The position numbers and the translations under genes are program-made. The notes under the pieces are model-generated. The model was not told where the DNA came from and did no database searches. It worked only from the letters and a program-made list of their open reading frames with translations. This document shows positions 663 to 59,038 of a stretch of DNA of 64,000 bases, piece after piece; within the stretch, counting starts at the first letter, position 1, and the number at the start of each line of letters is the position of its first letter. Origin of the DNA: Takakia lepidozioides (Eukaryota > Plantae > Bryophyta); contig CM060731.1 of assembly GCA_030704615.1 (NCBI GenBank), positions 73,966,001 through 74,030,000 of the forward strand, read 5' to 3'.

Positions 663-737
663 GAGTGATGAGGTTATATATGCATGAGTTTATGCTTCAG
701 ATTTGTGAGCTCGTGCTTGTATTCTTCTTCTTTATCA
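663..737 (+). repeat. 3' tail (75 bp) of the gypsy LTR (5' LTR remnant)
   Basis: GAGTGATGAGG...CTTTATCA is identical to 16512-16586. Confidence 0.9.
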
Positions 738-1966
738 CTCAAGAAATATCAGCTCGTATCTGTAAGTGCCAGATACGAGTTAGTTGTAGCACTTGTGGTT
801 TTTGCTTGAGAATGAGAGAAACCAGGCTGTTATGCAAGGAGCACCGTGGAGCTCTTGGTTGTTAGAAGCGGAGGCGATGTGGGTTACGAGGTGGTAGACC
901 TTGGCATTCGATCTTTAGCTTCAGAGATAAAAGCACCATGCTGCAGTGTACTTTGTGGAGTATGTTGAGATTGGGTTTCAATCTCGAGCTTCAGCATTGA
1001 GAGGGCTCTTGTCATGGCAAGAGCAGGGCTGAAACAGGAGCTAAGAGGTACGGCAAGACAATGGAATGTGCACCTAGGGTTTCAGAGCTTGGAAAAAGAG
1101 CTCTTGCACCACAAGAGGAGTGTCTTGTGGCTGGAAATGTAAGCCTTAGGGTTTCAGGAGCTTGGCAAAGGCTGTGGAGTGCTTAGTCTTATCTTAGAGA
1201 GCAGCAATGAGCCAAGGAGCCAAGATAGGGGCCTGATACCTCTTGTGTGAAGAGGTTGCATGTGTGGAGCATGTATTCAGCTCATTGAAGCTTCCATCTT
1301 CAAGTTGGAGGGCAAGCAAGGAAGAGGGAAGGGCTGACTTCCCTTATGTGAGAGCAATGCATGTGTGGAGCATGCTTTCAGCCTGTTGAAGGCTTGTACT
1401 TTCAGGTTTGGGAGTGCAAGAAAGGAAGCAAAGGGGCTGATTCTCTTGTGGTGAGAGTAGGGCATGTGTGGAGCATGCCTTCAGTCCATTGGGCTTTTGT
1501 TTTCAAGCTTTAGAGAGCTAGAATGGAAGGGCTAGGGCTGGTTCCCACTTGGGTGAAAGAAAAGCACTTGTAGGGCATATGTGAGGTGGGGTTTCAACCT
1601 CAAGCCTAGATAGAGCATGGCTCTTGAAGTGGCATGTAGGGGGCTGGAATAGGCTCTAAGACAGATGCTATGGCCAAGGAAAAGGCTTGAATGAGTGCTC
1701 ACAAGGGCTGGAAACCAGCAAGGCTTGGTTGTTTGCCATTGAGTTTAGTGGCGTGTTTGGGGAGTCTAAGTGAGAAAGAAGGCTTGGTTTGTGGCAACCA
1801 TCTTCCTCATGTCTTAGGGCTACTATTGGTGGTGTGTGGGAGCCGAAAGAGCAAGAATACCTTGCTGATTTTTTCACAGCCGCCATAGCTCGGTGCAAAG
1901 AAGCCTAGAGTCCAAGAGACACAAACCCTAGCTTGGCATGGCTAAACCCCTTGGAGAAATGGCTAA

Positions 1967-2560
1967 ACTGTCATGAGTGGCCTGTGGGGCTGTGATGGGC
2001 CGTGACAGGCTGTGCCCTGTGGCCTATGGGGCTGTGACGGGCTGTGACGGGCTGTGATGGGCTGTGACAGGCTGTGGCGGGCTGTGCCCAGTGGCCTATG
2101 GGGCTGTGACGGGCTGTGACGGGCTGTTGTGAGCTGTGACAGGCTGTGCCCTCTGGCCTGTGGGGCTGTGACGGGTTGTGAGGGGCTGTGAGGGGCTGTG
2201 GCCTTTGGGGCTGTGACCCCTGTGACCTGTGTAGGGCTGTGACAGGTTGTGCCATGTGGCCTGTGGGGCTGTGACGGGCTGTGAGGGGCTGTGACAGGCT
2301 GTGCCCTGTGGCCTGTGGGGCTGTGACGGGCTGTGACAGGCTGTGCCTGTGGCCTTTGGGGTTGTGATGGGCTGTGACAGGCTGTGACCTGTGGCCTTTG
2401 GGGCTGTGACGGGCTGTGGCAGGCTGCGGCCTGTGGGGCTGTGACCCTGGGACCTGTGTAGGGCTGTGACAGGCTGAGGCCTGTGTTGGGCTGTGACAGC
2501 TGTGACCAGTGAGCTGTGTGGGCCTGTGCTGGTCTGTGGTGGCCCGTGTTGACCTGTGGA
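1967..2560 (+). repeat. Minisatellite of GGGCTGTGAC-type 10-mers with higher-order units, in the retroelement 5' leader
   Basis: Dozens of GGGCTGTGA(C/T/G) units punctuated by GTGGCCT(G/A/T)TGG. The minus-strand HSPSQP-repeat ORFs derive from it. Confidence 0.95.
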
Positions 2561-3229
2561 CGGCCTGTGCTGACTCGTGGATGCACTGGTGGACTGCCTA
2601 AGGACTGGCATGTGGTCTTGAAGGCCGAATTTTGAAGTTCGTGGAGGGCGGTTTGAGAAGTATCTTCATGATATTCCCATGGTCATGCAAGTGAGGGAAG
2701 AGAGGAGAGAAAGAGTGTTGGGATGAGGGCATGCTGGGGTTAGGCATTGCTTTAGCTTCTCTTCCTCGTAGTTTCCACCCTCTCATTAGGCCAAGACCTT
2801 TCCGTAGGTGGAGGCAAGAGTCAATCCGGGTTTGGGCTGGGGTGTCCTTGCAGGAGCAACACCGTGGAGTTGTTTTTGGTGTGGGGGAGTTGTCGTTCTG
2901 ATTTCTTGTGTTTGGATCCCCTCCATACCTGCATGCTTGACTGTGCGTCATGCTAGTTTTGTGTGGGCGCTTGTTTTTATAGGTGATTGGTCCGGATTTG
3001 ATCACCGGCCAGTCCTAGAGCATGCTGTCGATGGTGAGGCTGGGGTGATGACCAGCCAGACCATCATTGTTTCTCCTGTGGTGAGGTTGGAGGTGATGAC
3101 CAGCCAACCATAGGAGTGCTTGCGGTGGATGCAGGTACAGGTGTAGGCTATGTTAGGAACTTAGTATTCCAAACCATAAGCCGCAACAGGTTCTCTACCT
3201 GGTTACCTTGTGGAGAGGGGGTTAGAGAT

Positions 3230-4981
3230 ATGTTCATGACCGGTTGAGTGTCAACACGGAGGTGCCACTAGTTGCTGGAGACAGTGCCGGTTCGAGCACT
3301 AGCGATACTAGTGGGTACACGAGACGAGGTGTGTGGTTTAGGCCACCTTCACCTCCTGTGTCTTCTACGGAAGGTTCTGATTCGGATTGTGAATCAGGAG
3401 GACTCATACCAGCGGTGTAAGTTGTTTCCTTGCCATTGTTGTGGGACACGATGGAGGAGATGTATGGAGCTACCAACGAGCCACAAAGGTACTCTGGGGC
3501 GGTGGGCACCATTGAGTTGGATGATTTTATCCAAGAGTTTGATAGTTGGTGTGATTTGCAGCAAATGCGCAATCCACAACTATTTACGCCTTTCATGGCA
3601 TGGAAGGGGCTATTTCAGCACCTTGAGGGGCCGCCTATGGATGATTACCATGAATTCAGGCGGGGGCATGAGGTTGAGATCGAGGAGTGGAGGATGTACT
3701 GGTCACCCGATCTCCATCACTAGGGGCACTAGAGTCACGAGGGCAGTGGCTACATCTGCTGCTGCACCGGCAGCTTTAGCAAGCAGCAGTGGGACTAGTA
3801 GGACTAGTGGTACCATAGCTACGACGTCCACCCAAGCCACTACTGTACCAACACCAGTACCCGTGCCTGCCTTCAACCCTGTTGTGGAGTTCTTCGAAGA
3901 GTTGAGAGGGAACTACCAAGGGGTGAGGACAGAGAAGTTGCGAAGCTTACAAGAGTTCCAACAGAAGCCTACTAAGAGCTTGAGGGAGGCTTTCACTCGC
4001 ATGAGGCGCTTGATAAATGTAACCCAAAGGGTTACGGAAGCTCAGGCACTCCAATTCTGGTATGGGATATTGGACAAGGAGCTGAGGAGAAGGGTGCGGG
4101 ATGCAACTCTCCTACAAGCGGCCCAACCCACCTTAGCAAATGTGTTTTTGCTGGCAGAGCAGATAGAGCTCAACATGGTGGAGGAACGAGTGGTCATGGT
4201 GGGATTTGCTAAGGAGACACCACGGGGTAGTGGTGCTCCTAGCCAACCACTACCTGAACATGCTCAAGGCAATAAGGGGGCTCAGGTGAAGCTCAGGGAA
4301 GGGCAGAGAGGACCTCAGATGTAGGGGTCTCTCCCTTCATTTGCAGGCCAACAACGGGCGGATGTGGTGTGTTGGACATGTGGAGGACCCCATGTCAAGA
4401 AGGATTGTCCAGAGGGAGGCAAAGGGCCGGCACATGCACAGCCTGCACAGTTGCAGTGTGGACATTGTGGCAAGCACAGGCATGGAGAGGCCCAGTGTTA
4501 TGGTTTGCATCCCGGGCTGCGCCGAGGCCAGTTCCAAGGGAACAATGGTGGCCGGGGGCGAGGGGAGCAGCCCAAAGAGGACAAGGTGGCCAGGCACGGG
4601 GTGTAGGCCAAGGGCAAGCTCAACATAGCCAAGGACACGGAGGTCAGGGTGTTGACCAAGGCATAGCCAACCGGCTTCAGCAGCTAGAGCAAAGGCTCGT
4701 TGCCATGGCTATAGCTCAGGTGGTACGGGCTCCAAGGCCGGATGGTCCACCTCCTGCTCCTGAGGGAGAAGATATGGGAGGCATGGGATTCATGTGCGGA
4801 GCAGCACTACCACTAGTGCAGGTGGAGTCTGCTGCAGCCGTGACTTAAGGAGCAGCACGAGTTCCTGAGCCACGAGGTGCAGAGGTGGAGTTGGATCCAT
4901 AGCGTGGGGAGGCAAGCCATCAGGCTAGGCTCCCTCAGTCATTCACATTGGCGGAGACAGTGTCGACGCCATCCATGGCAC
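3230..4981 (+). pseudogene. gag: gag of the DNMT-bearing gypsy element (frameshifts and stops)
   Basis: Capsid-like segments (LDDFIQEFDSWC..., LQEFQQKPTKSLREAFTRMRRL) and Zn knuckles CWTCGGPHVKKDC and CGHCGKHRHGEAQC (~4370-4500). The frame continues across the DNA-transposon insertion (...AETVSTPSMA|PSSRPT). Start is approximate. Confidence 0.85.
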
Positions 4982-5284
4982 CCCGGGGGGTGCACTCTTT
5001 ATAAACTGTGCGTATCACGTGCGTTCGTCGCCTAATAAAAAAAACCCCTGTATACGGGTCCTTGGATAATTTATACCCCCTCTGTACATACTTTTTGAAG
5101 ATTATAAAATCCCCTCCTGTAAATATACAAAAATTTACAATTTTCGAAAAGTACCCCCTTCTGTATGTATATTCTCATTTTTCATCATTAAAAATAACCC
5201 TCCAATATGTATATGTATGTTTTTATATTATATCGAATTTATTCATTTAAAACATAATAAAATCTAACAAATTAATTTAAAAAA

Positions 5285-6097
5285 TTATTTGCCTTTGATA
5301 AAGTTGTCAAAGACTTTTCGGTCATTTGCATCAAGAACATATGTGTTTGACTTGACATTGTACTTTAAATATGCTAATGCGATAATGGAATCCAAATCAA
5401 CCATCATGTTATCCGTCAAATCGTACGTATAGACCCCTCCTCGAATTTTTTGGTACCATGCTAACCCAATCTCCATATGAGAAGGACGCTCCAATAAATC
5501 AACAGAATCCCTACATTCTACAAACCGCTTATTGATTTTCTTTCGCATTCTTTGAACCCTGCCCAAATACCAAGTGCCTTTGGTTGCTCCTCTGCATGTT
5601 TTCCCTGGTCTACCTTTCCTATTTGTAGTTTGGATCGCAGTCTCCGCATCAACAAAAAATACAGCACAATCCGAACCCAATCCCAAGCCAGCAAAGGGTG
5701 TATCAGGGTCCATCCTCATCTTGGTAGACACTGGTGCCGGGTCCTCGCCTGGTCTGTCCTCATGCAAGATCGTAGAACCACTGGAAGATAGAGGTCTTTT
5801 CAATCCTTGGTCCCCATCATTTTGGTCTGAAATCTTAATGTGTACAGTATCCCCTTTCAGAACCATCCTCTCTTATTGCTTGGCTGAAAAGACACTACCC
5901 CCCATGGAAAGGAAATGAAATTTTGCTGAGACAAGCTCATCACCTATAATTTCTGCTCGGATGCATTTGTATGTGACACCTTGCATAGTGAACACAGAAC
6001 CAAGCCTGTTTGGTGATGCATCTCCTCCAACAAGCAGGACTTTTACTTCCAACTCTTCTTCCATGATGAATTCACCTGCAAAATGCAATGAAAACAT
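5285..6097 (-). pseudogene. Unknown protein inside the DNA transposon, probably the last exon of a spliced gene, with one in-frame stop
   Basis: Two in-frame ORFs (5873-6097 and 5285-5866) separated by one stop. Acceptor-like TTTGCAG|GTGAA near 6080 on the minus strand. The stop lies just inside the subterminal region. No catalytic motif recognised. Confidence 0.5.
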
Positions 6098-6220
6098 TTC
6101 AAATCAGACCTTGATAGACCAATAACAAAGCACCCGGGTTGGAAGGTTCCAAAGTCTTGTTTTATACAACCCTATAGGCTATCCAAGTAGGAACTACGTT
6201 CATAAGAGGATGAAATGTAT

Positions 6221-6944
6221 TGTCGCACACCTCAGTTCGGTAAACTCCCCTTCAAGTCATAGTTACTCGCTTGGATGCGCGCGCCTGACTCCCAACCTGG
6301 CCGTCGGGCCAACTTGGAGTTTCGGCTGCTCACCGGGACATAACGGTCCCCTTCCGCTTCCCTCTAAACCCTCCACCTATTTGGGACTAGGAGAATTCCC
6401 TTTGGTAGATGGCAGTCCGGAACAGCTCCCCACTCTTTGGTCGCTTTCCGGCTCGCTCGCTTACTCACTAGTTTTTGGTCACCAACGGGCTTGCACCGTT
6501 CTCGGGGTTACTACTCCCTATATATACTTCTGTAGCTGTCCGCGGGGGTTTCATAACCAGCCATGCCATTTTATGGCGAACCACCACGAAAACCCTCGAC
6601 TCCCGGTGGTGAGTCGCGGTGAGTCTTGGCCCACTCACCGCGGCCCCAATGGACCGTGATGAGTCCCAAGACTCCCCACGACTCCCACCTCGAGGTCTCC
6701 ACCCCATGGTGAGTCCTATGCCACCCCCACTAAGTCCCACTAAGCTACCACCACCCCTTGTGGAGCCACCTCCACCGCAACCCGGTGTGCGGGGCTCCAC
6801 CTAGTGAGCGCCTCCGCCTCCTTGAGTGCCTTGGGCACTCAAGGGTGCTTCAGCCCCCCATACCTATCGCTGCCGCTGCCCCCACCACAGGGGCAGCCCC
6901 TCATGTGTCCCGACCCCCTGCCCTCAAGGCAAAGGGCCGCGACA
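6221..6944 (-). mobile_element. Solo LTR of the chromovirus family at 17970-23813
   Basis: Reverse complement of that LTR, with TGTCGC...GCGACA ends and a perfect TSD TGTAT (6216-6220 / 6945-6949). Confidence 0.95.
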
Positions 6945-7868
6945 TGTATACAGAAGCAAGTACCTGATTGATGAGTTTGATGTTGTTAATTTTTGCTGCT
7001 GCTATTGACCAAATGCTGCTACTTCCACTGCTGGTAGCCCTCTTGGGTGATCCTGAACCCACAGTCCATCCTTGCATCAGCGGCTAGCCCTCCCTCCACA
7101 CTAACATATTTAAATACAAAGTTCTGTCAAACTCCCTACGATGTTGCATGAAGAAAGCTCACCTTATTGACAATATTGTCCCACCGCTGTGGATCAAATT
7201 TATAGAACTCCTGCCAGCGCTGTTCCTTGCTCCAAATCTGGCCCTCTTGGATGATTTTGCACCCACGATCCTCTCCCTGCATCAACAGCTACCCCTCCCT
7301 CCACACTAACAATGCGTACATCATGCATCTGCAGCTACTACTGTGGCTTCCAGTTGACCATCTACCCATCCAGGTTTCTTGTAGCTATCATTCCACATGG
7401 AATCATAGGTAATCTGGAGCTTGGAATCCGCCATCTGGAAATCTAGGGACGACTCTGATAATAGGGAAAAACAGGCTGAAATGTGTTGAAGAAGATACCT
7501 TCATTAGCAGTCCCTTGTTCTATCTATTATCTTTTTTTAGGTACTGTCATGCTACCACCTCGGCAGCAACTTGCAAAGTCACTCCAGAGCACAGCAGATC
7601 CACCCAACGAGCTAACTTACAGAATTCAATACATATGCTTCAGGGCTGAGTCTGATGAGAGGGAAAAACGGGCTGAAACAGGTCAAACCAGAAAGTGCCC
7701 TCAGGCTGAAATACGTTGAAGAAGGTACCTTTCATCAGCAGTGCCTTGCTTTATCAATTGCACTGTTGCCGCTGCTGTTTCCAGTTGACCATCCACCCAC
7801 ATTGTCCCACCATTGACTGGGGTCAGAAAAGTGTCTCATTCCAAAGCTTCTCTTCATCTCTGTGGTGC

Positions 7869-8500
7869 TATTGTAGGGTGACTTCAATGCCCAAGTGGGC
7901 AAAGGGCTCCATCAGGACGATATCATTGGGTCTTCTGGTGAGGACGAGCTGAATTCTAATGGCAGACGGTTAATTAACTGTCTGGAAGAGCTTCAGCTTT
8001 TGACCTTGATTAACAAGACAAGAGGTGACCAAGTGCAGTGGACTCGTGAGAAATCCCAAACTGGGAACGTTCCATTGTGGACTATATCATAATGGACAAA
8101 AATTTGTTCCCCCAGTGTGCCAATGTGTTGATCGACAGAACTGATATTGGTACCTCTGACCACTTTCTGGACTGAGATCAAAAGGTGTTTTCCAAGGCCA
8201 GAGTAGAAGAGATTCTCAAGGACCTGGACCTGGATCCGCAAGTCTTGACCTTGCTGGATAAATCAGACTTAGAGGCTGTAGTGTCCAAAGCCATGTCTAT
8301 TGCCATGAGATTGTCTGATGAAAATGAAGTTAGGCATAAAACTTCCCTGAACTTGTTTCTAGTCAGTGACATGGGGGAGGACATCTTGGATGACCTCAAG
8401 GGTCCACCCACTCTCGGCACTAGACTGAAATTTAAACTCAGGGAAGGAAGCCTACCTTTGAACATGAAACAGAAGCAGAGAGGAAAGGGGGAGTGCACTC
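7869..8500 (+). mobile_element. Internally deleted LINE fragment (same family as 44570-49411)
   Basis: Matches the endonuclease region (~46290-46620) fused directly to the 3' ORF region (RVEEILKDLDLDPQV...). Confidence 0.9.
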
Positions 8501-9018
8501 TCCCAAGTGAACCTGCATCATTCAGTTGGCAAGACCGTGTCTGAAAAATTGATCCATTTGAAGACACCACGGTGCAGCTGAGCACAGCCTGACATGACAA
8601 CAATTAAACATCATACTGAGACAAGAGAAGCAGTCAAGGACACAGTCATGCATATGGCAGCAAGTGATCACCCTTCAAACATGATTGAAAACATACATGA
8701 GGTCAAAGGCAATAAGAAATCAGCAAAGGGTACTGCAGCTAACAGTTGGAGTGTCTTTAAAGACAAAGGGAAGAGAAAGAAACACTTCACTGGCAATGAG
8801 GGGAGGCTGTGGAAACGCCAAGAGGATGGCACAAATGATAGAAATAACAGGGCTGGGCAAAGGATCCTGCAGGAAGAAGAAAGGGTATGTCAGCATGGAA
8901 AGGACGTGCAGCTCATTCCAACAGAAAGGGGAACATTCGTGCAGTTAAGTACAACAACCAATTGCCCTTCAATTATGGCTGGAATTTTCCAAAAGGCGAG
9001 GGATGATAAGGATGAGAT

Positions 9019-10880
9019 TGTACTCATAAGACGTTGTTTGCCGTAGCCTTGTGGCCATTGACCCCGCGCCCAGTTTCAGTGGGAACAAAAGGAACAGGGC
9101 TGACGTTGGTAGTAAGACTTACCATCGTATAAGGAATTAATCCGGGTTTTCCAGATATCCTCTAGAAAACCCTTCACACAAGCATCAATCTGCTGTGTGT
9201 GATTTGCCCAAAAACTAGGCCTCAGGAGGGCCTGGGCTTTTGGCTCAGCCTCGAGACTTTCAAAGTTGGTAAACAGGGGTACAAGCACAATTCCCTTGAT
9301 AGAATTGAAGAGAGCCTCTCTTTGGTGAGAGAACCCGGACAACGTATCAGAAAATGAATACTGTCTTCAGATTGCCCACACAACGGACAATTGCACTCTC
9401 CCTTTCCTCTCTGCTTCTGTTTGCTGTTCAAATTGCTGACATTAGCCTCTAGCCCCCAAAGATCAAAGTATCTCTTCGCGCAATTAATCAACTCCTGAGT
9501 GTGATGCCACGGTAGTTCCCCGGTTCTTCTCTATCACCCTTCTTGTATAGACTGACAATGACCCCCTGTCGCCAGCGAAAGGGGATCATTTCAGTCTTCC
9601 AGATAAGGTTAAAGAGGAGAACTAGGGCCTCTATCATGGGATCGCCACCGTGCTTGATAAGCTCGTTGACAATACCATCAGGTCCACCAGCTTTATATCC
9701 ATTTAAATGTTCAATTGCTTCCACAATCTCAGAAGAACTAATGGGAGCGTTATAAGCCATTGAAATATACTCCAGTTCATCAGGGCTGTTTTGAATCATA
9801 GGAACAATTTTTCCAACTGTGTCCCTCCATTCAGCAGAAGACCCCTCACTGTTAGACCTAGAAGTTCTGCCAAGGATACTGTAGTGATTTTCAAAGGTTT
9901 TGACAATGTCAACCGATGAAGTCACCACTGCACCTTTAGTAGTCTTCAGCGCTTGTACTTGCTGACCATTTTTAGGCTTGTACAAACGTTGAAGGGCCAA
10001 CCATAATTTCTTGTCATTACCACCATGGTGGTTTGAGTTTATTTCACTGTATAACTTATCCCAGTATAATTTCTTCTGAGTTTAACAAGCTGATTGATAT
10101 CTTTCCGGAGCTGATAGTACCTCGCCCACAATTCTCTGTTGGTTTTCATCACCAAAAGGCCCAATGATATCATCCCGATGGAGCCCTTTGCCCACCCGGG
10201 CATTGAAGTCACCCAATAGCACTACCTGACCTTTGGCAAGGAACGAAGCACAGTCCAGCTTTACATCTTCGAAGGCTTTGTCTGCGTCAGCGGCAAGAGT
10301 ACGAAGGACCTCTTTGTGGGTTGTGTTTACATGCCCACAGAGGGGACCCTTAGTGCTGATCCAGTTTTAGCCAGATACTATGTTCGTACCTCAAACCCTT
10401 GCTGATAATTTCACAATTATCAAACAAGAAATCACGGACAAAGAATCCAACCCCTTTTTGACCGCGTTTGGCTGAGGCTGCCTTGAGAGTACACATCCTA
10501 CCTGCCCATTTATAACCATTGACATCTCCAACCAGTTTATCCGAAGTTTCCCATGTTTCTTGCCCAGCACAGATATGAATATCATTAGTCCAAAGGACTT
10601 GTCCCACTTCGAGTTGTTTCCTTTGGTTAGTAAGCCCTGAGAAGTTGAAAGTGGCCAGCCGCAAGCCAGCCCTTTGCATGTGAATTGTTTGTCGTCTAGG
10701 TAGCTTGGGATCGCTCCTGGACGCCCAACCGTTCTGCAAAGGGGGGACAGTTACCCCATGTGTAGATTTTGCTCGTCTTGTGTAAACTCTTGAGTACCAA
10801 ATCCTTCAGATTCAGGACGTTCAGGTTCTGTACACTTAGGGGCATCTTGTCCCTCTGGCTGTTTGGATTCAATAAGGATG
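9019..10880 (-). mobile_element. Multiply deleted LINE copy (same family) with a small internal inversion
   Basis: Starts with the reverse complement of the LINE 3' end (TGTACTCATAAGACG...). Pieces of Zn finger, RT, EN and 5' repeat are joined. About 10304-10358 is in the opposite orientation. Confidence 0.9.
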
Positions 10881-11549
10881 AGAATAGGCCTGATACAGTG
10901 AGTACAACCATTGTGTCACGCCAATCATTATTAGGAAAGAAAATAGGCCTAATGTGCTCATTACCTCTGATGACTGGGAATCTTGATGCCCATGTCCTCT
11001 TGTCATTGCTGCACAACAATCCGCCACCACACCCGCATATCATCACCGATCAGCCCAGGCCTGCCCCACATTCCCGCGCACTTACTTCATCCCCTTCGAT
11101 TCCTGCCCTCTACATACATCACAACCTCAAACCTTCTCCCAAGTCAGTGCCCTCACCACATTGTCCTACCATGCCCTGTGGAGAGGAGGGGAGAGGAGAG
11201 GAGGAAAAAGAGAAAGCCCGCGGAAGGGAAGGCGAACGCGGGAGAGGAGGAGAAAGAAAAGAGAAAGCCGCGGGAGGTCAGGGGAGAAAGATCGTAGAAC
11301 GAAGGAAAAAAAAAAAAAACAAACATACAAAACGACGATTCCACGATTCGATACCGGGATGCATCGCGGCGGAATCGCCATTCTTACCACTACACTATCC
11401 CTAAAAACTCAACAACCCCCTCCTGTAAAATTATATTTAAGGTGTTTTAAACCCCCCTCTGTATGTATAATGTTGTACATGGGGGGGTTTAAAATACCTC
11501 CTGTGCACGCACGTGGTTGGTACATTTAATGAGGAGTGCACCCCCCGGG

Positions 11550-12351
11550 CATGGCACCTAGTTCTCGCCCGACTGTTACCGAGGCGGAGGTTACTACGCC
11601 ATTGGGGAGAGCTACACGGGTAGCACCACTACCTAGTGTTGCCAAGGCTACGGCAGCTAGTGTACTGCTGGGAGCGGCCACATCTGTGTGTCAGGCTCCA
11701 TTGTTCTCGGCTACCATGATTGCGACATCGGGGATAAGACCAGCTGAGGTGTTCAGGCTGGTAGCTACACTCTGTGAGAGTGAGGAGGTTACTTCATCTT
11801 CTGCGGAGATAGTGGGAGGTGTAGTGCCGGAGGGATCCTCGGATTTGAGGGTCAAGACTGCCACGACGGCGCCATGGCAAGCTGCAGCTGCCAGGTTGAT
11901 GGAGCTGCCAGCTAGGCCAGCCATTGAGCGCACCATGGTGACACCTGGAGTTGTCATGTTAGACAACCAGGATGACATTTTCTGTTTGAGTGGACCAGCA
12001 GGCAAGAGGTACCGGCCACTGCGGGTCTTGTTGGACTTAGGAGCTCAGCCATTGATGCTGGGCACAGATGCTATTGCAGGCTTGGGCCTCACGGAGGCGG
12101 ATATGGAGCCTTGTCCTTTCCAGATACAGACGTCTCTGGGAGGATCGGAGCAGGCTCGGGGCATGACACGGTGTGAGTTGGCTATCAGACTGCGGCCGGA
12201 TCACCCTACAGATGGCTCAGTGATGCGAGCCAAGGCCATTGTGACAAACGCGGTCTCGTACGATGTCCTGGTTGGTGGGGCAATGTTGTACCCCATGGGC
12301 TTCACCCTGGATTTTTTGGAGGAGTCAGCTTCCTATAGGCCTGGATGGTAG
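11550..12351 (+). pseudogene. Gag-pol linker and retroviral-type aspartic protease
   Basis: RVLLDLGAQPLM (degenerate D-S/T-G active site, ~12020-12060) and the C-terminal YDVLVGGAML motif. Confidence 0.8.
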
Positions 12352-12739
12352 TCAGGGGAGGGCCGGCATGTGCAGCTCCTTGTGACGTTTATAGGAGGGG
12401 TTGCGGTTGCCCAGCGGGGCAAGATGCCGACACTAGCAGCATTCACAGCTGCAGTGACTTGGCCTGGAAAGTTGCTTGAGGGAAACGCTCATTCAGAGGA
12501 TGACATGCCTCCAGGAGAACAGGATGACATGTATGATATGGCGGAGTTGTCTGCCATGGTTGCTCAGACTCCATTGTGTGGCACGAGCAAGGATTTGCAG
12601 TAGGTTGCTGATCGACGGGTGCAACAAGCCTGGGTGGAGGCTTTTGTACCATCAGGAGAGGAGGAGAGTGCGGGGATTGCACCAGGACCACCTCAGTTGT
12701 CTCCATTGGACACCACATCTATTGTGTGGCAGTATCCGG

Positions 12740-13710
12740 ATGAAGGCATTTGTCTTCTGGACTTGTTTGGCGGGATCAGCACCAGATTGGCTGATATATT
12801 ACAGGCAGGTGTACGAGTTCAGCGTTACCTGTATGTGGAGAGGGATGAGACTGCACGACGTATTTCACTTTGTCATGTTGCTCAGTTGGTGCAGCGGTAC
12901 CCTGAGTTGTTGCCGGTGGCTACAGTTTGTGGATATCAGCAGGCCTTGCCAGCAGACATTTCGTTGCTGGGGGCGCAAGATTTGGAGCGGGTTGGCTCCA
13001 TTGATCTGGTAGTGGCAAGTTGGCCCTGCCAAGGGCATTCATCAGCCGGGCATGGCAATGGATTGTGAGACTCGAGGTCGGGTCTGTTTTGGGAGATGGT
13101 GTGGGTTTTGCGCCACTTGCAGCTTCATCAAGCTGTATCTCCAGCATACATCTTAGAGAATGTGCCACTCACAAGTTTCTCGGGCCAGGATGATGGCCAG
13201 TGTGCATCAAGTCCGGTCGTGGCTTGGGTCAGCAGTGTTGTTAGATGCAGCTACAGTGGGGTCACGGGCTCATCGTCCACGGCTATGGTGGACTAACTTG
13301 ATGCCACCCGCACTGCTCAAGCGTGCATTTGATGGGGTGCAGCGGCCAACACATCTCACAGTGGATAGCATTCTGGACACATGGAGGCAATCTCGGCGTG
13401 TGAGACACGATGACCGTTTGCCTTTGGCAGTGGTCAACAAGGTGGATCAACCACGAGCAGCATTACCTACACTGCTCAGCTTCCCAGGATCGCATGCTTT
13501 CCGGGATTGTGGACCTGGCCTCCTGTGGGATGCTCAGTTGCAGCAGTTAGTGGAGCCTAATGCTGACGAGCGTGAGCGGGCAATGGGTTTTACCACTGGT
13601 ACCACGGCGGTGCCGTCTCTTTCTAAGGCAACACATCGTCAGGTGTTGGGGCAAGCAATGGATCTCAATTGCTTGACCTGCATTATCAGCTTGGCTATGG
13701 CTAAGCAACG
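12740..13710 (+). pseudogene. C5-cytosine DNA methyltransferase domain (DNMT3-like) within pol
   Basis: Motifs in canonical order: I LLDLFGGIST, II YLYVERD, III PADI, IV DLVVASWPCQGHS (PCQ 13024-13032), VI YILENV (13156-13164), VIII DAATVGSRAHRPRLWWTNL, IX ERERAMGF, X RQVLGQAMD. One stop (13066-13068) and one frameshift (~13170). Confidence 0.92.
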
Positions 13711-14049
13711 CAGAGTGCGGAGTGCACTTCCCTCGCTGGTCTCTCTGCCTACCGAGACGGTACAAGCAGTGAGTGGGGGCGAGCATGTGAGGACCACGGG
13801 GTGTAGGCATCCATGGCACACGTGGGAGGTGCTCGAGGTTTAGAGGGAGTTGGCAGCCAAGGTGGCGGTGATGGATGAGGCTGGGGATTTTTCTCAGGTT
13901 GAGGAAGTCCTCGAGAATGAGATGATGGGGCAAGATGAGGCCTTGTCATTGACTGAGCAGGTAGGGAGTACTGCTCAAGAGGTTGCAACATAGCAACCAC
14001 TGGATGCGTCCTCTACCTCTAAGCCCACTGGACTTAAGGTTGTAGTTAC

Positions 14050-14300
14050 GGAGGACAATTGGGAGCCTGACATTGGACCCATTGTCACCGGAGGAGAGAG
14101 ACGACATATACGGCGGTTCCTGAGGGCTTACAAGAATTGTTTTGCCTTCAATTTGAAGGACTTGGGAGCACTGAAATGTCAAGAGATTCATATTGAGTTG
14201 GCCACTGACACGCCAATCTTTTGGAAACCCTATAGATACAGTGACATAAAGAGGTCTTTGATTCAGATGAGGACTCAAGATCTCTGGGAGGTCAGGTTGG
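14050..14300 (+). pseudogene. N-terminal remnant of gypsy reverse transcriptase; RT core and RNase H deleted
   Basis: FAFNLKDLGALKCQEIHIELATDTPIFWKPYRYS... is typical pre-RT sequence. It then jumps to the pre-integrase linker; no YxDD or RNase H motifs. Confidence 0.75.
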
Positions 14301-14313
14301 ACCTACAATAGGG

Positions 14314-15819
14314 ATGACTGTAGACGGAGTGTCTGAGGACCCTGAGGCTAGTGATGAGCCAGGTGGTACCAGAGATATACATGAGGATTCGGCTGTGTTG
14401 GACTACCTCCGTACTGGAGATATGGCAGCCACTGTGACTGCCAAGGAGAGGGATCGGATCCTGCAACGAGCCAAGAGGTTCAAGTGGGAGGGGATACACC
14501 TGCTCCGAGTATGGGAGGATGGTCGGGTGAGGATTGTGCCTCACCCCACACAGCGTGCACGGTTAGTGCGGCATACCCATGAGGAGTTGGGGCATTTTGG
14601 AGTGCGATGCACTCACAGTTTACTGCAGGGGCAGTATTAGTGGCGTGGTATGCATACAGAGGTGCAACAGTTCGTGGCTAGGTGCATGGTGTGTGACAGG
14701 GTGTGTGCTTCATTCAACGCCCCTACACCACAGTTGCATCTTTTACCAATCATGGGATTGGGCTACAGGTGGAGTCTTGACTTCGCAGGACCGTTGCCAC
14801 TGACTATGCGCCACCACAGATATGTGTTGGTGATGGTGGAGTACTTCTCCAAGTGGATTGAGTTGGTTCCATTGCCTGACAAGGCTAGTGAGGGGGCCGC
14901 GTATGCATTCTTGGATCGTGTGCTTAGCCGATTTGGTACTCCAGCTGAGGTACTCACGGACCAAGGGAGAGAGTTCTTGGGGGAGTTTCAGGCTTTGTGT
15001 GATAAAGCCTTGATAGACCACCGCACCACTTCTCGGGATCATCCTGAGGCCGATGGCTTGGCAGAGAGAGTTGTTCAGACGGTGAAGAGGGGTTTGCACA
15101 AGTATGGCTTGCAGAAGGGACACCTAGGAGATTGGGATCTTTAGGTTTCTTGGTTAGCCATGGGCTACAGGTTCAGCAAACAAGCATCACTTGCCTCCTT
15201 CTCACCATATTTCCTTCTCTTTGGCCGAGAGCCGGATTTGCCTGCAGCCATTCGTAGGGACACTGCTCAAGTCCTTAACCTTGACGATCCGGACGTGTGG
15301 GTACGTGCATGTGATCAGCGTGCAGAGTTGTTCAAGAAAGTCATGCCCATGGCTTTTGAGAACCTTGCCATTGCACAGCACCGTGATACGTTGAGGTATG
15401 CCACTATACGTGGTGGAGGATATCGTCCTGGGGTTCGGAGGTTTAGCCCTGGTGACTATGTTTATTTGCAGCAGACTGCTCTTACGACTCTGGATGTTAC
15501 TGCAGGGCGTGTTATTCTGAGGGTTCGAGAGGTGTTGCCCTCAGGGGTCGTGATCTTGGAGGGTCGGGATGGCATGACTTGGAAGGACCATGTGCGTAAT
15601 TGTGCGCCATGTCACCTTCCCAATGTCGATGGCAGAGTTGACCCAAACTTGGCAGTGATACCTGCAGATTTGAGGTGCATGCTCTGTGGGTCTGCCAAAG
15701 GGGCAGCCACCATGATGGTGTGTGATCGATGCTCAAGGTGTTGGCATATGGGATGCTTGACACCACCTCTTGATAAGGTTCTTGACGGAGATTGGTTGTG
15801 TCCACACTGCTTGGGATAG
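14314..15819 (+). pseudogene. Integrase with a C-terminal PHD finger
   Basis: HHCC (HEELGH...CMVC) and DDE core (WSLDFAGPL, VLTDQGREF, DGLAERVV), with in-frame stops ending at 14640 and 15144. C4HC3 PHD: CMLC...MMVCDRCSRCWHMGCLTPPL...GDWLCPHC (~15676-15810). Confidence 0.93.
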
Positions 15820-16079
15820 TGGCAGTGGACATGACTGGAGGCAGCTAACAAGACATGGGAGGCCAAGCTCATAGGAGTCAATACATGAAATCCCAAGCTC
15901 AAGTTCACATGTTGCAAGACGGCGACTAACGATGGGGCAACTCTTGCACCCGGCCTCTTGATCTATCGAGTTTGAGTGTAGTAGGGATAGTGGTGGAGGA
16001 CTTAGTGAGGCTATGGTCACTATCATATCTTGTGGCTACCTGGACTTAGAGGGACCTAAGCACCAGCTAGGGGGGCGAT

Positions 16080-16586
16080 TGTGTGGACTAGTGACTGCCA
16101 TAGTGCGCAGCATAGTGGCAGCCTAGTGACTGACTAGTTGTAGCCTAGTGGTTGGACTAGTGGTTGGACCAGTGGTGGACTAGTGATATACTAGTGTGTG
16201 GCGTGCACATGTGTTGTGTGGTTTTGGACAGCGATGTAGTTGTGTAGCGATATGTATGCGCACGACAGCTGTCAAGTTATTTTACCACTAGTGTGAAACT
16301 AGCTAGGAAATAGCTAGTTTTTACATATTGACATTTGGGATTGGCCCAAGTGTCAATCTAGGGGTCAAGGCAGATTTAGGCCTTGGAGTGGTTATCTTCA
16401 CGGCAAGCGCGGGAGGCTCATCTTTCTCGAGTTGAGCCTCACCGCACCTAGCTATGGCGCCGTAGTGTGGATTCCCCGTGGCGTGGGGTGCACTTGGGTT
16501 GACTTGTATTTGAGTGATGAGGTTATATATGCATGAGTTTATGCTTCAGATTTGTGAGCTCGTGCTTGTATTCTTCTTCTTTATCA
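16080..16586 (+). repeat. 3' LTR of the DNMT-bearing gypsy element
   Basis: Follows the PPT, begins TG and ends CA. Its tail is duplicated at 663-737 and its head at 16588-16763. Confidence 0.75.
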
Positions 16587-16587
16587 T

Positions 16588-16763
16588 TGTGTGGACTAGT
16601 GACTGCCATAGTGGGCAGCATAGTGGCAGCCTAGTGACTGACTAGTTGTAGCCTAGTGGTTGGACTAGTGATAGACTAGTGATATACTAGTGTGTGGCGT
16701 GCACATGTGTTGTGTGGTTTTGGACAGCGATGTAGTTGTGTAGCGATATGTATGCGCACGACA
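16588..16763 (+). repeat. Second copy of the LTR head, abutting the LTR end
   Basis: Repeats 16080-16267 with a few substitutions and one fewer ~12-bp GACTAG-type unit. Confidence 0.9.
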
Positions 16764-18756
16764 ATGATTATATTGACAATTCACAATATCGTGATTTCCG
16801 AGTAAATGATAAGTAAATATTCGCGTCCTACTTTGGACACAACTTACTATTTAAAATTGATTGTAAAGACCATGGAATTTCAGTCTTCTTCTGATATTCT
16901 TTTGCTTTGCATGAAAATTGTTATATTGCCAAACCATACGTAACGGTCAATGGATCCGTTGTTCCTTTATGTCCGTCGATTTTTTTTTGGAACCACGCGT
17001 GATCGCGCGTTCTTTCAACTCAAATTTATTACTTTGCTGACATATATTTCATTTGCAGGTATGCCCATATCAACATGTTTTCCATGCCACAAATGCATTT
17101 TCAATTGGCAAAACAATATCGTCTGATATTGTTGACGATGTAGAAATGATCAGGCCAGAAGCTTTCCAACGACCTGACAACTTGTTGTCTTCTCAGACAT
17201 CCATTGTTGTTATGGAGAGTGATCCCATCAGTGTTTCGGATATTGTTTCGAGGCTCAAAATGTCAAAAGGTGAATCCACTGTTAGCAGGGTCGATGATTT
17301 AACTGGGGTTGGCTGCATAGTGGAAAACGACTCTCAATATCTTGGGGAATCCTCTTTGGAGCCGTCTTTATCCCAACACTTTCCACCAGACGCCGTTACG
17401 GGGCATCTACATGAGTTTACCAAACAATTGGTTGCAACTATCGCTGAACTACCTCCTCAACATGTCGTAATTCCAAGCGGGTCACCGGATCACGAGGGCG
17501 GGACACCTCAGCTGCTGAGAAGTCAGGTGATTTAATTCTATTTCATCCATGAGTTTTATTGTTACCGTGTTTTTGTTCATCCTCTGATTTTCTCTCTTTA
17601 CTCCAGGCCATAAAATCTGTAACGTATGACCTTCCTGTGAAGCGGCAACTTATGTGGGGTTGTATTCCAAGGTAATCATTTTTTTCCGTTTGAATTCAGT
17701 TCAGGATGTGTAGAAAGAAAGAAACCGAATTCCATTGCCAACCGTCAGCGAGAAGGTTATTGAACTCACTCATTCGTCGACTGAGGTCGCCATACCAACA
17801 AGCCGGCAAATATTTCTGCACATCCCTAACCCCCCATAATTCCGGATGGTCTTGTGTCAAGGAAACGTCACAGATTACAGCAGTCAGCGGCGGTCGTGTT
17901 CAACGATGAAAAACAACATCTGGCGTTTTGTTATCCCTTCAATATTCACCTGCCTCCAGTGGTAACCCGTGTCGCGGCCCTTTGCCTTGAGGGCAGGGGG
18001 GTCGGGACACATGAGGGGCTGCCCCTGTGGTGGGGGCAGCGGCAGCGATAGGTATGGGGGGCTGAAGCACCCTTGAGTGCCCAAAGGCACTCAAGGAGGC
18101 GGAGGCGCTCACTAGGCGGAGCCCCGCACACCGGGTTGCGGTGGGGGTGGCTCCACAAGGGGTGGTGGTAGCTTAGCGGGACTTAGTGGGGGTGGCATAG
18201 GACTCACCATGGGGGGCGGAGACCTCGTGGTGGGAGTCATAGGGAGTCTTGGGACTCATCACGGTCCATAGGGGCCGTGGTGAGTGGGCCAAGACTCACC
18301 GCGACTCATCACCGGGAGTCGAGGGTTTTCGTGGTGGTTCGCCATAAAATGGCATGGCTGGTTGTGAAACCCCCGCGGACAACTACAGAAGTATATATAA
18401 GGGGAGTAGTGACCCCGAGAACGGTGCAAGACCGTTGGTGACCAAAAACTAGTGAGTAAGCGAGCGAGCCGGAAAGCGACCAAAGAGTGGGGAGCTGTTC
18501 CGGACTGCCATCTACAAAAGGGAATTTCACTAGGCCCAAATAGGTGGAGGGTTTAGTGGGAGAGCAAAGGGGGACCGTTATGTCTCGGTGAGCAGCCGAA
18601 GCTCCAAATTGGCCCGGCGGCCAGGTTTGGGAGTCAGGCGCGCGCATCAAAGCGAGTAACTATGACTTGAAGGGGAGCTTACCGAAGTGAGGTGCGCGAC
18701 ACTTGGTATCAGAGCTTAGAGTTTAGTACGTGATCATCCTTGGGATTGGCCTCATC

Positions 18757-20539
18757 ATGGGGTCGGGCAAGCCAAAGCGAAAGCGGAACGGCCCAAAAGA
18801 TGATGATCATGGTGAGCCCGATGGGGGCGACATGTCACCGAAGCGGCCGTTTGAGGAAGCGACGCAGGTTTCTGAAAACGAGGCCGCTCAAGAGCGGGAG
18901 GAATTCGAGGAGTCGGAGCCCGAGGAATCCCTGAGAGCTTCGACAGACCAACAGATGCCTCCCATGCCGGCAGCTTTTTAGGAAGGGTTGTTGGCGCAGT
19001 TTGGCGGGACGTTGAAAGACGTGTTGAAGGCGGCTAATGCCACTTCCGCTAAGGCAAAGTTTAAGGTGAAGCCTAAGGAACCCGACACCTTCGAGGGCGT
19101 CCGAAATCGGAAGGCACTCAACACCTGCCTCTTGGAGCTAGAGCAGTACTTCCGGGCGGCCAAGTTGAGTGACGAGGATCGGGTGGAAGTGGCTCCCACC
19201 TATTTGAGGGGCTATGCTCAACAATGGTGGCAGAAACGCCTTCACGACCGAGGTCCAAGTCCGGAAACCTTGAACTGGAGTGGGTTCAAGGAATTGATGA
19301 AGAGACAGTTTGTGCCCCTCAACGCATCCTGGCTTGCCCGGGACAAGATGAGGGATTTGAAGCAAACAGACGACATTCGGGGATATGTCCAGGCTTTCAA
19401 TGTGCTTTTGCTCGAAGTCGCGGACATGGCAAACCGGAAATGGTCTTCAACTTTGTGGCGGGACTGGCCCCATGGGCCAGGCGGAAGTTGGAGGAGAAGC
19501 CACCTAAGACTTTGAACGAGGCAATTGAGAGGGCTGAATGTTTCTCAGATGTCCCTAGGGGTGAAAGACAAGGCCGTACGGAGCTGAACCACAAGAAGAC
19601 CCGGCGGGAAGGTGACTCCTTCGACCGGAAAAGAAGTGGGATAGGCACGGGCGACAATGGCACATGGAAATCGAAGGGAGGGCCATCACAAGTCAAGGCG
19701 GCACCCGGTGCTTCGAAAGGAAAAGCGGGTGGAGCGGCCTATGGCGGACAGAAGGCACCTTTGATGGAGTGTGTTTCAATTGTGGGGAGCCCGGGCACAT
19801 GGCCAAGAAGTGCACGAAGCCTCGGCAATTGAACATGACTCGGGCGACCACAGAGCTGTCGGAAGATACCATCAGTCGCTTAGTGGAAGCGGTGGTCGCC
19901 AGGACTTGCAAGGTAGGCAAATATTCTTGTGAGTTGTATCAGGAAACTGGCGCATTGCGTAAAGGGAGTCACTTATTGTTCGTGGATGGGATAATATCCG
20001 GAACTAACGTGTCATTGTTGGTGGACACAGGAGCGTCGCACTCCTTCATGACACCGGCAACGGCACAAAAGCTGGGACTCCCGACAACTGACGTAGGGGC
20101 CTCTATTGAGGTGCGTTCTGCCAAAGGAGAACCGCAATTGATGACGAGGTTGGCGATCGATGTTCCTCTTCAACTGGGGAGTTGGGAGGGACGTGAGAAC
20201 TTCACCGTCTGCGAGATCGATGGAGTGGATCTCATTTTGGGGATGATCTTTTTGAGAAAATCCGGAGCGGTCATAGATGGCCGCAAGAGGGTAGTCCCGC
20301 TGCCATGTTGGAATGGTGGCGAGGTCTTACGAGTTTCGGAAACGCCCAAACTCGTGGGAGGGCAAATAAACCTTCTTTCAGCAAGGGAGTGGGCCGTGGA
20401 GGAGGCACACGATCCCCAATTTTTGCTCTACATTAGAGAAGTGAAGGGAAAGGCGATGGAGAGCCGAGCCCAGATTGGATCAAGGGGATTTTGGAGAAAT
20501 ACCATGATGTGATGCCGGAGGATTTGCCAATCGGCTTGC
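18757..20539 (+). pseudogene. gag: Chromovirus gag and protease (stops and frameshifts)
   Basis: PKEPDTFEG...YLRGYAQQWW...LKQTDDIRGYVQAF, Zn knuckle CFNCGEPGHMAKKC, protease LVDTGASHSF...DLILGM. Confidence 0.92.
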
Positions 20540-21039
20540 NNNNNNNNNNNNNNNNNNNNNNNNNNNNNNNNNNNNNNNNNNNNNNNNNNNNNNNNNNNNN
20601 NNNNNNNNNNNNNNNNNNNNNNNNNNNNNNNNNNNNNNNNNNNNNNNNNNNNNNNNNNNNNNNNNNNNNNNNNNNNNNNNNNNNNNNNNNNNNNNNNNNN
20701 NNNNNNNNNNNNNNNNNNNNNNNNNNNNNNNNNNNNNNNNNNNNNNNNNNNNNNNNNNNNNNNNNNNNNNNNNNNNNNNNNNNNNNNNNNNNNNNNNNNN
20801 NNNNNNNNNNNNNNNNNNNNNNNNNNNNNNNNNNNNNNNNNNNNNNNNNNNNNNNNNNNNNNNNNNNNNNNNNNNNNNNNNNNNNNNNNNNNNNNNNNNN
20901 NNNNNNNNNNNNNNNNNNNNNNNNNNNNNNNNNNNNNNNNNNNNNNNNNNNNNNNNNNNNNNNNNNNNNNNNNNNNNNNNNNNNNNNNNNNNNNNNNNNN
21001 NNNNNNNNNNNNNNNNNNNNNNNNNNNNNNNNNNNNNNN
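20540..21039. other. Assembly gap (500 N), probably hiding RT and RNase H
   Basis: N run between the pre-RT linker and the integrase Zn domain. The round length suggests a placeholder. Confidence 0.95.
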
Positions 21040-22178
21040 ATGTCAAGACATGAATCACATGCAAACAAAAATGTGGTGGAGCGAGAGTAACAAAAAGCAA
21101 CGGGGCTGTTACAACTTGCCGATGCAAGAGGGGACTGGGGAAAGCGTTCTAGATTGGATTCTATGATTGCTATGCGCTGTCAAAAGGATTCGATTTCATC
21201 CCCACCAAGGAGACGGCAACGGCGCAGGAGACAGGGCGACTGTACTTCGCCCACGTCTTAAAGCATCATGGAGTCCCGAAGGATATTGTCTCGGACCGCG
21301 ATCCAAAGTTTACGAGTAAATTTTGGAGGGCACTTTGGAAGAAGATAGGGACGAGGCTGAAGATGAGCACCGCCTTCCGACCTATGACCGATAGCCAAAC
21401 AGAAAGAGTGAATTCCGTAGTGAAGCAGATCTTGCGGAATTACGTGTCGGCAGACCAAACAGACTGGGTGGAACACTTAGACGCGGCAGAGTTCTGTTAT
21501 AATAACACAGAACACTCCGCAACGGGAGTTTCCCCTTTCGTATTGGTCTATGGAAAAGCACCTCTGGTGCCGACAAGTTGGGCCGCCCAGGACATTGAGG
21601 AACCGGCAGTAGCTGCGATACTGGAAGAACGCGAGCGTTTGTTGAAGCTCGCAAAGTACAACATTGCCAAAGCTAGGAAACGGTATGAAAGGCAGGCGAA
21701 TCGGAAGCGGAGGGAAGTGAAGTTTGAGGCAGACAAAGAGGTCTGGTTGAACATCAAGAATTTCCGACTACCTCCGAAAGTGAGTCCGAAGTTCGTACCT
21801 CCGTATGTGGGACCCTTTCGCATTCAGAAGGTTATGAATGAGGATGTGTATGAATTGGAGCTGCCGGCAAACAACAAGGTGCACCCAGTATTCCATGTCT
21901 CCCTTTTGAAGCCTTACTTCAAAGATGAAGCACGTCCGAATCGGCATCAAGTGTTGCGTTCGTCACCTATGCTGTTGGATCATCAAAATGAACCTGAGTA
22001 CGAGGTAGAGGCAATACTTAAGTCGAGGAGGTTCAGGAACCGAGAAACGGAGTATCTCATCAAATGGAAGGGCTATCATCATGTGGAGGCATCTTGGGTG
22101 CGTGCCTCAGAAATGAGAAACGCATCCGAGGCGGTTGCAGCTTTCGAAGGGCGACCTCAAAAGCGGAAGAAGCGTTGA
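21040..22178 (+). pseudogene. Chromovirus integrase with GPY/F motif and chromodomain
   Basis: IVSDRDPKF, TDSQTERVN, YVGPFRI...VHPVFHVSLLK, and chromodomain YEVEAILKSR...EYLIKWKGY...SW. Confidence 0.93.
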
Positions 22179-27401: not shown

Positions 27402-28292
27402 TGTCGCGGCTCTTTGCCTTGAGGGCAGGGGGGTCGGGACACAAGAGAGGTTGCCCCTGTGGTGGGGGCAGTGGCAACAATAGATACGGGGGCTGAAGCA
27501 CCCTTGAGTGCCCAAGGCACTCAAGGAGACGAAGGCGCTCACTAGGTGGAGCCCCGCACACCGGGTTGTTGTCGCGGCCCTTTGCCTTGAGGGCAGGGGG
27601 TCGGGACACATGAGGGGCTGCCCCTGTGGTGGGGGTAGTAGCAATAATAGGTATGGGGGCTGAAGCACCCTTCAGTGCCCAAGGCACTCAAGAAGGCAGA
27701 GGCACTCACTAGGTGGAGCCCTGCACACCGAGTTGCGGTGGGGGTGGTTCCACGGGTGGTGGTAGCTTAGTGCGTCTTAGTGGGGGTGGCATAGGACTCA
27801 CCATGGGGCGGAGACCTTGTGGTGGGAGTTGTGGAGAGTCTTGGGACTCATCATGGTCCATTGTGGCCGTGGTGGGTGGGCCAAGGCTCACCGCGACTCA
27901 TCACCGGGAGTCAAGGGTCTTTGTGGTGGTTCGCCATAAAATGACGGTGTTGTTTGTGAAACCGCCGCGGACAGCCACAGAAGTATATATAGGGAGTAGT
28001 AACCCCAAGAACGATGCAAACCCGTTGGTGACCAAAAACTAGTGAGTAAACGTGCAAGCCAGAAAGTGACCAAGGTGTGGGGAGCTGTTCCGGACTGCCA
28101 ACAACCAAAGGGAATTTCCACTAGGCCCAAAGTGAGCGAGGGTCTTGTGGAGGAGCAAAGGAGGACCGTTATGTCTCGGTGAGCAGCCAAAGCTCCGAGT
28201 TGGCCTGGCGGCCAGTTTGGGAGTTAGGCGCGCGCATCAAAAGCGAGTAACTATGACGTGAATGGGAGCTTACCGAAGGGAGGTGCGCGACA
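27402..28292 (+). mobile_element. Solo LTR (chromovirus family) with its first ~168 bp duplicated in tandem
   Basis: Partial LTR 27402-27568 followed by a full LTR 27570-28292. Flanks TTAGG / TTACG (4/5 TSD match). Confidence 0.9.
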
Positions 28293-28578
28293 TTACGTTA
28301 CTTGTATTGGTCCATGCTGCATGGGGCGAGATTTACTCAAATTGACATGGTTCTGAAATAAAACCTGGTTGTTTATCATCAATGTCTCCTCATTGTCTTT
28401 CATTTCATGTCATGGTATTGTGTCATTGTGCCATGTTTTGCTCAGATATTTGAATGATTTATCTTATACGTTACATAGTAACGGCCTGCACAAGCTCAGT
28501 CGCGGTTACGAATATGACTGTTGCTCCCAATCATCCATCAGGCCGCGGATCATGAAACGAGTTATCACCCGACACCCG

Positions 28579-44300: not shown

Positions 44301-44569
44301 CCCCACGGCTACGGCAAATGGGGCCAGTTATTGGGCAAATCACACACAGCAGATTGATGCTTGTGTGAAGGGATTTCTAGAGGATATTTGGAAAACCCGG
44401 CCTCGGTACATTACACCAAGGCAAGTCTTACTACCAACGTCAGCCCCTGACAGAGGTAGGTTCTGTCCCTTTGTGTTCTGCTCAAACTGGGGCGGGGTCA
44501 ATGGCCACAAGGCTACGGCAAACAATGTCTTATGAGTACATTCTCTCTCTCTCTCTCTCTCTCTGTGCT
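41385..44569 (+). mobile_element. Four 5'-truncated LINE copies in head-to-tail tandem
   Basis: Copies at ~41385-42096, 42127-43107, 43119-44273 and a composite at 44283-44540. Each ends ...ATGAGTACA plus a (CT)n-like tract and GTG. Confidence 0.92.

Positions 44570-53149: not shown

Positions 53150-59038
<5,889 letters not shown>

Follow-up and report, generated by a model that had tools for sequence, protein, structure and literature searches.

It has been an open question since 2018 why retrotransposons carry an enzyme of the silencing class, and the carriers known so far do not lend themselves readily to manipulation. The window analysed here, a stretch of 64,000 nucleotides from Takakia lepidozioides (contig CM060731.1), poses this question for a land plant, since a decayed Gypsy-type element within it bears a cytosine methyltransferase (DNMT) domain. 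Statements on the papers cited below refer to those parts of each source that were available. The best explanation, considered probable, is that the moss element is a dead member of a Gypsy-type family of bryophytes in which the DNMT closes a Gag-protease-DNMT reading frame, RT-integrase is likely made by readthrough only, and each particle would hold many DNMTs that likely methylate the new cDNA.

The domain is DNMT3-type by sequence and, as modelled on a relative, by fold. Its C5-methyltransferase motifs I–X stand in linear, non-permuted order without an intron, and every motif cited in the original prediction was found (LDLFGG at the start, WPCQ, ENV, DAATVGSRAHRPRLWWTNL, ERERAMGF and RQVLGQA); the N-terminal half lies in the protease frame, as had also been proposed, again without an intron. 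The suggested check against PF00145 after bridging the stop at 13066 and the frameshift near 13171 gave E 2e-10 and 41.1 bits against a cut-off of 22, with a query of 327 aa (P0002) carrying X at both breaks; the separate, unjoined pieces score under the cut-off. Both breaks are private to the window copy and absent from sister copies in a contig comparison. A phmmer search of the PDB supports the predicted likeness to DNMT3: DNMT3A is the best match (E 3e-6), DNMT3B and 3C come next, and HhaI (0.03) and DNMT2 (0.11) are far behind. The predicted structure of an unbroken relative 66% identical to the window DNMT (P0107; mean pLDDT 75) retrieves DNMT3A/B/C at every rank listed by Foldseek, with a best E of 2.5e-18. 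The SAM-binding motif, the catalytic PC and ENV are retained from Marchantia to Scenedesmus, with EC instead of PC in two deeper members.

The element proved larger than first described, at about 663–16763 (Table 1), and the claim that this copy is dead holds: it carries nine stops and several frameshifts, not counting the junction stop or the ORF end. The window copy and its relatives show the Gag-PR-RT-RH-INT order with a DDE integrase that defines Ty3/Gypsy elements, and no tyrosine recombinase, the hallmark of DIRS/PAT/Ngaro, occurs in the scanned frames of the element, where an rve integrase is found instead. The predicted order PR-DNMT-RT-RH-INT-PHD is confirmed by relatives; the window copy keeps about 100 codons of RT and has lost RNase H. 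Placement of the DNMT "inside pol" was imprecise: the domain lies between protease and RT, but it closes the Gag-PR-DNMT ORF and a conserved stop separates it from RT. A 5' truncation of this copy near 11550 was ruled out, as gag and the A1 repeat lie upstream of a nested insertion. Sister contigs run on at 11550 from sequence matching the window directly upstream of that insertion. From its inverted ends and 8-bp duplication we take the insertion (4982–11549, 6.6 kb) to be hAT-like; it contains a solo LTR (~6214–6944, minus strand) and LINE pieces.

Table 1. Features of the decayed element in the window (positions are those of the window).
Feature	Position	Strand	Evidence and remarks
5' repeat A1, remnant (5' part gone)	663..737	+	75/75 nt identical to 16512–16586 (end of A2)
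Long 5' leader with degenerate tandem array (~1970–2485)	738..3450	+	Between A1 and first ORF1 codon; putatively part of the element
gag portion of ORF1, disrupted by stops and frameshifts	3451..4973	+	tblastn to Marchantia ORF1, 44–76% identical; Retrotrans_gag E 6e-5
Nested insertion region, foreign to the element	4974..11557	.	Insertion 4982–11549; 16-bp inverted ends; 8-bp duplication (4974–4981, 11550–11557)
ORF1 linker, aspartic protease (~11995–12300) and spacer	11558..12729	+	58% identical to Marchantia ORF1 protease region; Pfam E 0.1; stops 12349, 12601
DNMT3-like C5 cytosine methyltransferase domain	12730..13713	+	PF00145 match, PDB sequence search; stop 13066, frameshift near 13171
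Conserved in-frame stop ending ORF1, TAG CAA CCA (UAG-CAR-YYA readthrough context)	13991..13999	+	No alternative letter at a share of at least 30% in four runs
N-terminal RT remnant	14000..14291	+	Remaining RT and RNase H deleted; loose sister-contig ends at 14286–14324
Integrase (H2C2, rve core) and C-terminal PHD finger (15676–15810)	14329..15819	+	rve 1.6e-14, PHD 8e-10; stops 14638, 15142; ORF end 15817
Purine-rich tract CTAGGGGGGC, candidate plus-strand primer	16067..16076	+	Just before B1; putative function
Repeat B1, ending ..GACA	16078..16267	+	Repeat comparison with relatives
2-bp spacer, then repeat A2 (16270–16585) starting TGTCA	16268..16585	+	B1|A2 = element end joined to element start
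Repeat B2, 3' end of element (..GACA)	16586..16763	+	92% identical to B1; past B2 depth drops several hundredfold (run X1)

A search of longer proteins returned 56 long homologues of the window DNMT, with Calypogeia fissa, Marchantia polymorpha and Sphagnum as top matches (46–70% for these genera). One Marchantia cluster has 18 members, and five Marchantia ORFs of 1278–1281 aa retain all DNMT motifs, motif X being altered in one. Among these five full-length ORFs the DNMT is the least variable part, at 98.4–99.1% identity vs 91–95% for the gag-PR linker. Between families, DNMT dN/dS is 0.10–0.19 (5 pairs), less constrained than RT (0.03–0.05) or integrase (0.03–0.09); these estimates are restricted to stop-free single-frame DNMTs (7 of 40; 6 pairs), and many deeper pairs are saturated. 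The close Sphagnum-type copies L002 and L022 are near neutrality (w 0.93), as expected from decay after insertion. By these comparisons the DNMT is a family trait under purifying selection, in line with what the original prediction had proposed to check in relatives and with its view of an element domain rather than a captured host exon. The rival idea that the window copy alone captured a piece of a host DNMT3 is refuted and has a negligible probability: the domain is intronless, recurs at an unchanged position in the elements of liverworts, Sphagnum, Klebsormidium and Closterium, and is under purifying selection. In runs of the host, contig depth, which is not the copy number of the element, is about equal over DNMT and integrase and several hundredfold above the 3' flank (run X1).

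Some observations on these relatives stand apart. The window DNMT is 69% and the integrase-PHD region 75% identical to Marchantia copies, and the host gene at 60209–61576 is 47% identical; strong constraint, paralogy and horizontal transfer among bryophytes are candidate readings of the high identity of the element compared with the host gene. Marchantia copies group with Sphagnum, apart from Calypogeia, with weak support. Four of the 15 Marchantia cluster members listed (P0434, P0435, P0436, P0439) have Mp_Vg/MARPO_Y gene names, a naming that presumably denotes the male sex chromosome of Marchantia. One member of the retroelement DNMT family, P0332, is labelled as a Candidatus Obscuribacterales protein from a metagenome-assembled genome, probably reflecting plant or algal contamination.

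The way in which the domain is expressed depends on the stop at 13991. In this lineage ORF1 comprises Gag-protease-DNMT and is separated from the downstream RT-RH-INT-PHD part by a conserved in-frame stop. Unlike the TAG at 13991, the stop at 13841 has a common alternative among sister contigs. A TMV-type readthrough context is also used by the SIRE1 retroelement. The exact CAR-YYA hexamer that follows UAG in the TMV readthrough signal (PMC2754532) follows the stop in the window and in L001, L037, L038 and L041, where it divides Gag-PR-DNMT from RT. Among 80 metagenome loci surveyed, 59 have a DNMT followed by RT; the first stop in frame ahead of RT has the form TAR-CAR-YY in 51 of these 59, which represent about five lineages rather than independent cases, vs 11 of 614 decay stops inside domains. 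The Sphagnum-like form TAR CAA CCC, which departs from YYA, is shared by 44 of the 59, in 13 of which the stop is TAA. The eight loci without the motif comprise four with a nearer decay stop, two with an insertion, one with another context (L051) and one with no stop (L057); the junction stop is visible in five of the six with a nearer decay stop or an insertion. The pyrimidine pair of the context is kept though the encoded residue varies (P, L, S).

These patterns make it very probable that RT-integrase is made by readthrough of the junction stop. The stop could instead be a true terminator, and RT-integrase could be translated after reinitiation or from another RNA, spliced or separate. The Sphagnum-like clade, with its ATG at codon +3 and its imperfect context, would suit this alternative, which is nevertheless quite unlikely given that frame and CAR-YY context are conserved over about five lineages. 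Moreover, gag through PHD form one frame in L037, interrupted internally by the junction stop alone, and its first downstream Met comes 117 codons later; an ATG close downstream is missing from the window family and L001. The five full-length Marchantia ORFs end 98 aa past motif X and three other relatives end 94–116 aa past it; the deeper members P0118, P0119 and P0126 are continuous ORFs without a junction stop. No RNA structure 3' of the stop was evidently common among the relatives compared (without a shuffle control). Codon differences between L037 and L038 near the junction are mostly non-synonymous and so do not strengthen the case that the linker is translated.

Under readthrough, Gag-PR-DNMT would be made with every Gag and RT-integrase only rarely, and a leaky stop in this position would therefore pack many DNMT copies into each particle. 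By analogy with general retroelement biology, the protease would quite probably free the DNMT inside the particle. The enzyme may, with similar likelihood, be catalytically active on DNA, and there is about an even chance that its main substrate would be the element's new cDNA, probably at CG. If the cDNA is methylated in the particle, new insertions would arrive marked like host DNA.

An active DNMT might alternatively be guided by the PHD finger of the integrase to the chromatin of the host where the element inserts or nearby, or to old copies, rather than acting on free cDNA. This is unlikely, since in the bryophyte group the DNMT would mostly be made without RT-integrase and would therefore not be tethered to the PHD finger, although that finger follows the integrase in both architectural groups of these elements, and in the larger one (RH-DNMT-INT, see below) the DNMT sits directly upstream of the integrase.

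In the window, CpG observed/expected is 0.50 in the element, 0.55–0.67 in host genes and 0.47 in the LINE; no element-specific CpG depletion as a trace of self-methylation appears relative to host genes or LINE, and CpG and CHG depletion were set aside as uninformative in this comparison. The lack of element-specific CpG loss would also fit retention of the domain for nucleic-acid binding or RNA methylation in the particle instead of DNA 5mC, and expression at Gag level would fit such a structural role. The only activity assay published for this clade, run in yeast on the K. nitens domain, detected no methylation, a result that its authors call inconclusive (PMC5890265). Binding or RNA methylation is nonetheless very unlikely, since the SAM-binding, catalytic and ENV motifs are kept as described above, the fold is nearest DNMT3 in the P0107 model, and retroelement DNMT3s of Symbiodinium methylate CG, as reported for SymbioDIRS-Dnmt3 in yeast (PMC5890265). 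Methylation of new cDNA by an abundant enzyme remains the preferred reading.

The ends of the element depart from those of ordinary LTR retrotransposons. PAT/Ngaro-type DIRS elements have split direct repeats in the arrangement A1-ORFs-B1-A2-B2, and the window family shares this layout but differs by its DDE integrase, its TG..CA termini and target duplications of 4 bp. The repeat layout is complete in L059 and L035 and partial in L011, L070, L079, L022 and L043. Ends of TG..CA type with 4-bp target duplications were seen in both relatives that have both ends (L059, L035); the 5' end of A1 is lost in the window. Because of the split direct repeats the element is not of ordinary LTR type, and the two ordinary LTRs and tRNA primer site of Ty3/Gypsy elements were not found: by eye no tRNA primer site is apparent after A1, where the sequence starts CTCAA and not TGG. 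The same CTCAA.. sequence follows A1 in L059, L035 and L022. The tract CTAGGGGGGC is the same or near-identical in L059, L035, L011, L070, L079, L037 and L041. A GACA-nn-TGTCA junction (B1|A2) occurs in the window and, with the full motif, in eight other loci, including the distant L037 and L041. Going by this arrangement, the internal B1-A2 copy would probably be the template for both ends in reverse transcription; that the integrase might cut the B1|A2 end-to-end junction directly is speculation. The combination of split repeats and a DDE integrase hints at a mode of replication that has yet to be studied, and LTR finders would probably miss or mislabel such elements. Troyka elements, considered as a precedent for split repeats, were not borne out as one in the available text of PMC12440569.

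The closest published system is KnitGypsy-Dnmt3 of the alga Klebsormidium nitens (de Mendoza et al. 2018, PMC5890265). Both it and the window family carry, within a Gypsy polyprotein, a Dnmt3-type domain that lacks introns, is not permuted and evolves under purifying selection. According to a figure legend, the KnitGypsy-Dnmt3 repeats are arranged as in DIRS (PMC5890265), and the split repeats of the window family agree with this. In a FastTree DNMT tree of 126 rows, all retroelement sequences, the PR-DNMT-RT type forms one clade of 42 rows (support 97) that contains the window, the bryophytes, Closterium GJP34393.1 and the K. nitens CCHC-PR-DNMT protein GAQ93235.1 (P0216), which is only 34% identical to the window DNMT and which we infer to be KnitGypsy-Dnmt3. 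Since Klebsormidium and Closterium proteins share this clade, the window family is kin of KnitGypsy-Dnmt3 and not a separate land-plant invention. The original prediction of an undescribed land-plant lineage therefore stands only in part: no land-plant report was found, but the kind itself is published. The hosts differ, being a moss with relatives in liverworts and Sphagnum here and an alga there. PMC5890265 places the KnitGypsy-Dnmt3 DNMT in the Pol ORF and its acquisition in the K. nitens lineage, whereas in the window family it ends ORF1; neither a readthrough stop nor a PHD finger, a target duplication or an end-to-end junction appears in the available text.

REM1 is a PHD-bearing Gypsy element of Chlamydomonas. 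Gypsy-7a_cRei of the same green alga also bears a PHD finger, with no methyltransferase among its listed domains (PMC9940879). SymbioDIRS-Dnmt3 and SymbioLINE-Dnmt are retroelement-borne DNMTs too, but belong to tyrosine recombinase and LINE classes (PMC5890265). The EpiLTRs of Cymbomonas and Euglena have a DNMT of another clade, sister to DNMT4, with DAM and chromodomain (bioRxiv 10.64898/2026.05.21.726589). Later papers, in the parts available, cite KnitGypsy-Dnmt3 as "streptophyte" without naming land plants, and a 2019 review describes such elements as absent from "land plants, such as tracheophytes" (PMC6338049). No bryophyte or other land-plant DNMT retrotransposon was found in the literature searched (Repbase, REXdb, subscription papers, figures and preprint supplements lay outside its scope), including the available parts of PMC12344493, 10.1101/363937, PMC6453930, PMC11982613, 10.1101/2021.11.30.470311, 10.64898/2026.09.17.752431 and PMC3350952; the same search returned no paper on a readthrough junction, target duplications or end junction of DNMT elements, nor a description of the RH-DNMT-INT group.

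That second group emerged from a profile search for DNMT kin, which gave 400 clusters at E up to 1e-30; among the best 150 of these, 60 have the DNMT after RNase H, 13 have it after protease, and 53 show no second domain. RH-DNMT-INT members are RT-RH-DNMT-INT-PHD polyproteins (e.g. P0146, P0038, P0043, P0045 and L075); the single named one is a protein of the chlorophyte Scenedesmus, and several fall short of PF00145 at E 1e-5. An integrase tree, limited to elements with a DNMT plus a single chromovirus piece, unites the PR-DNMT type in one clade (98) amid the others; the backbone of this tree is poorly resolved and its root is not reliable. One gain of the DNMT followed by relocation would be the simplest reading of these sequences; two gains, or transfer, are possible. 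A broader proposal, tentative and rather doubtful as a whole, would unite a DNMT3 and PHD integrase group across the green lineage: without a tRNA primer, its ends would be rebuilt from an internal CA-nn-TG junction that the integrase may cut directly, a Gag-level enzyme would methylate cDNA in the particle, and the DNMT would have entered a single time, early in green plants, and later have changed place between the RNase H-integrase and the protease-RT position; the family would survive in bryophytes, with recent copies in Marchantia. Separately, P0057 and P0058, from metagenomes, are distant DNMT-RT proteins with a DIRS-like layout.

Marchantia polymorpha is a model plant for which methylation mutants exist, and its full-length ORFs of the family, 91–99% identical to one another, make the question of why such elements carry the enzyme testable by observation; the putatively leaky stop narrows the mechanism by predicting enzyme abundance in particles. 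In annotations these Marchantia DNMT-element ORFs figure as hypothetical host genes, and in methylomes of bryophytes they could contribute methylation of non-host origin.

The land-plant host first proposed agrees with the neighbour gene at 60209–61576: a quick tree of this single gene (30 rows) puts it among mosses (support 100) and outside a group of Sphagnum plus the remaining mosses sampled (93). The neighbour is a single-exon CAAD-domain coiled-coil gene with homologues in streptophyte algae, bryophytes, a lycophyte and ferns, and no named seed plant among 42 matches. Elsewhere in the window, an ordinary chromodomain Gypsy element with two near-identical LTRs spans 17970–23814 across a 500-N gap (20540–21039), with further LTR copies near 27570–28299 and 34858–35569. 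Several 90–98% identical pieces of one LINE family lie at 41400–49400 and 8150–10870, and a LINE ORF at 45338–47839 encodes endonuclease and RT. A multi-exon glycoside hydrolase family 1 gene occupies 53100–59040.
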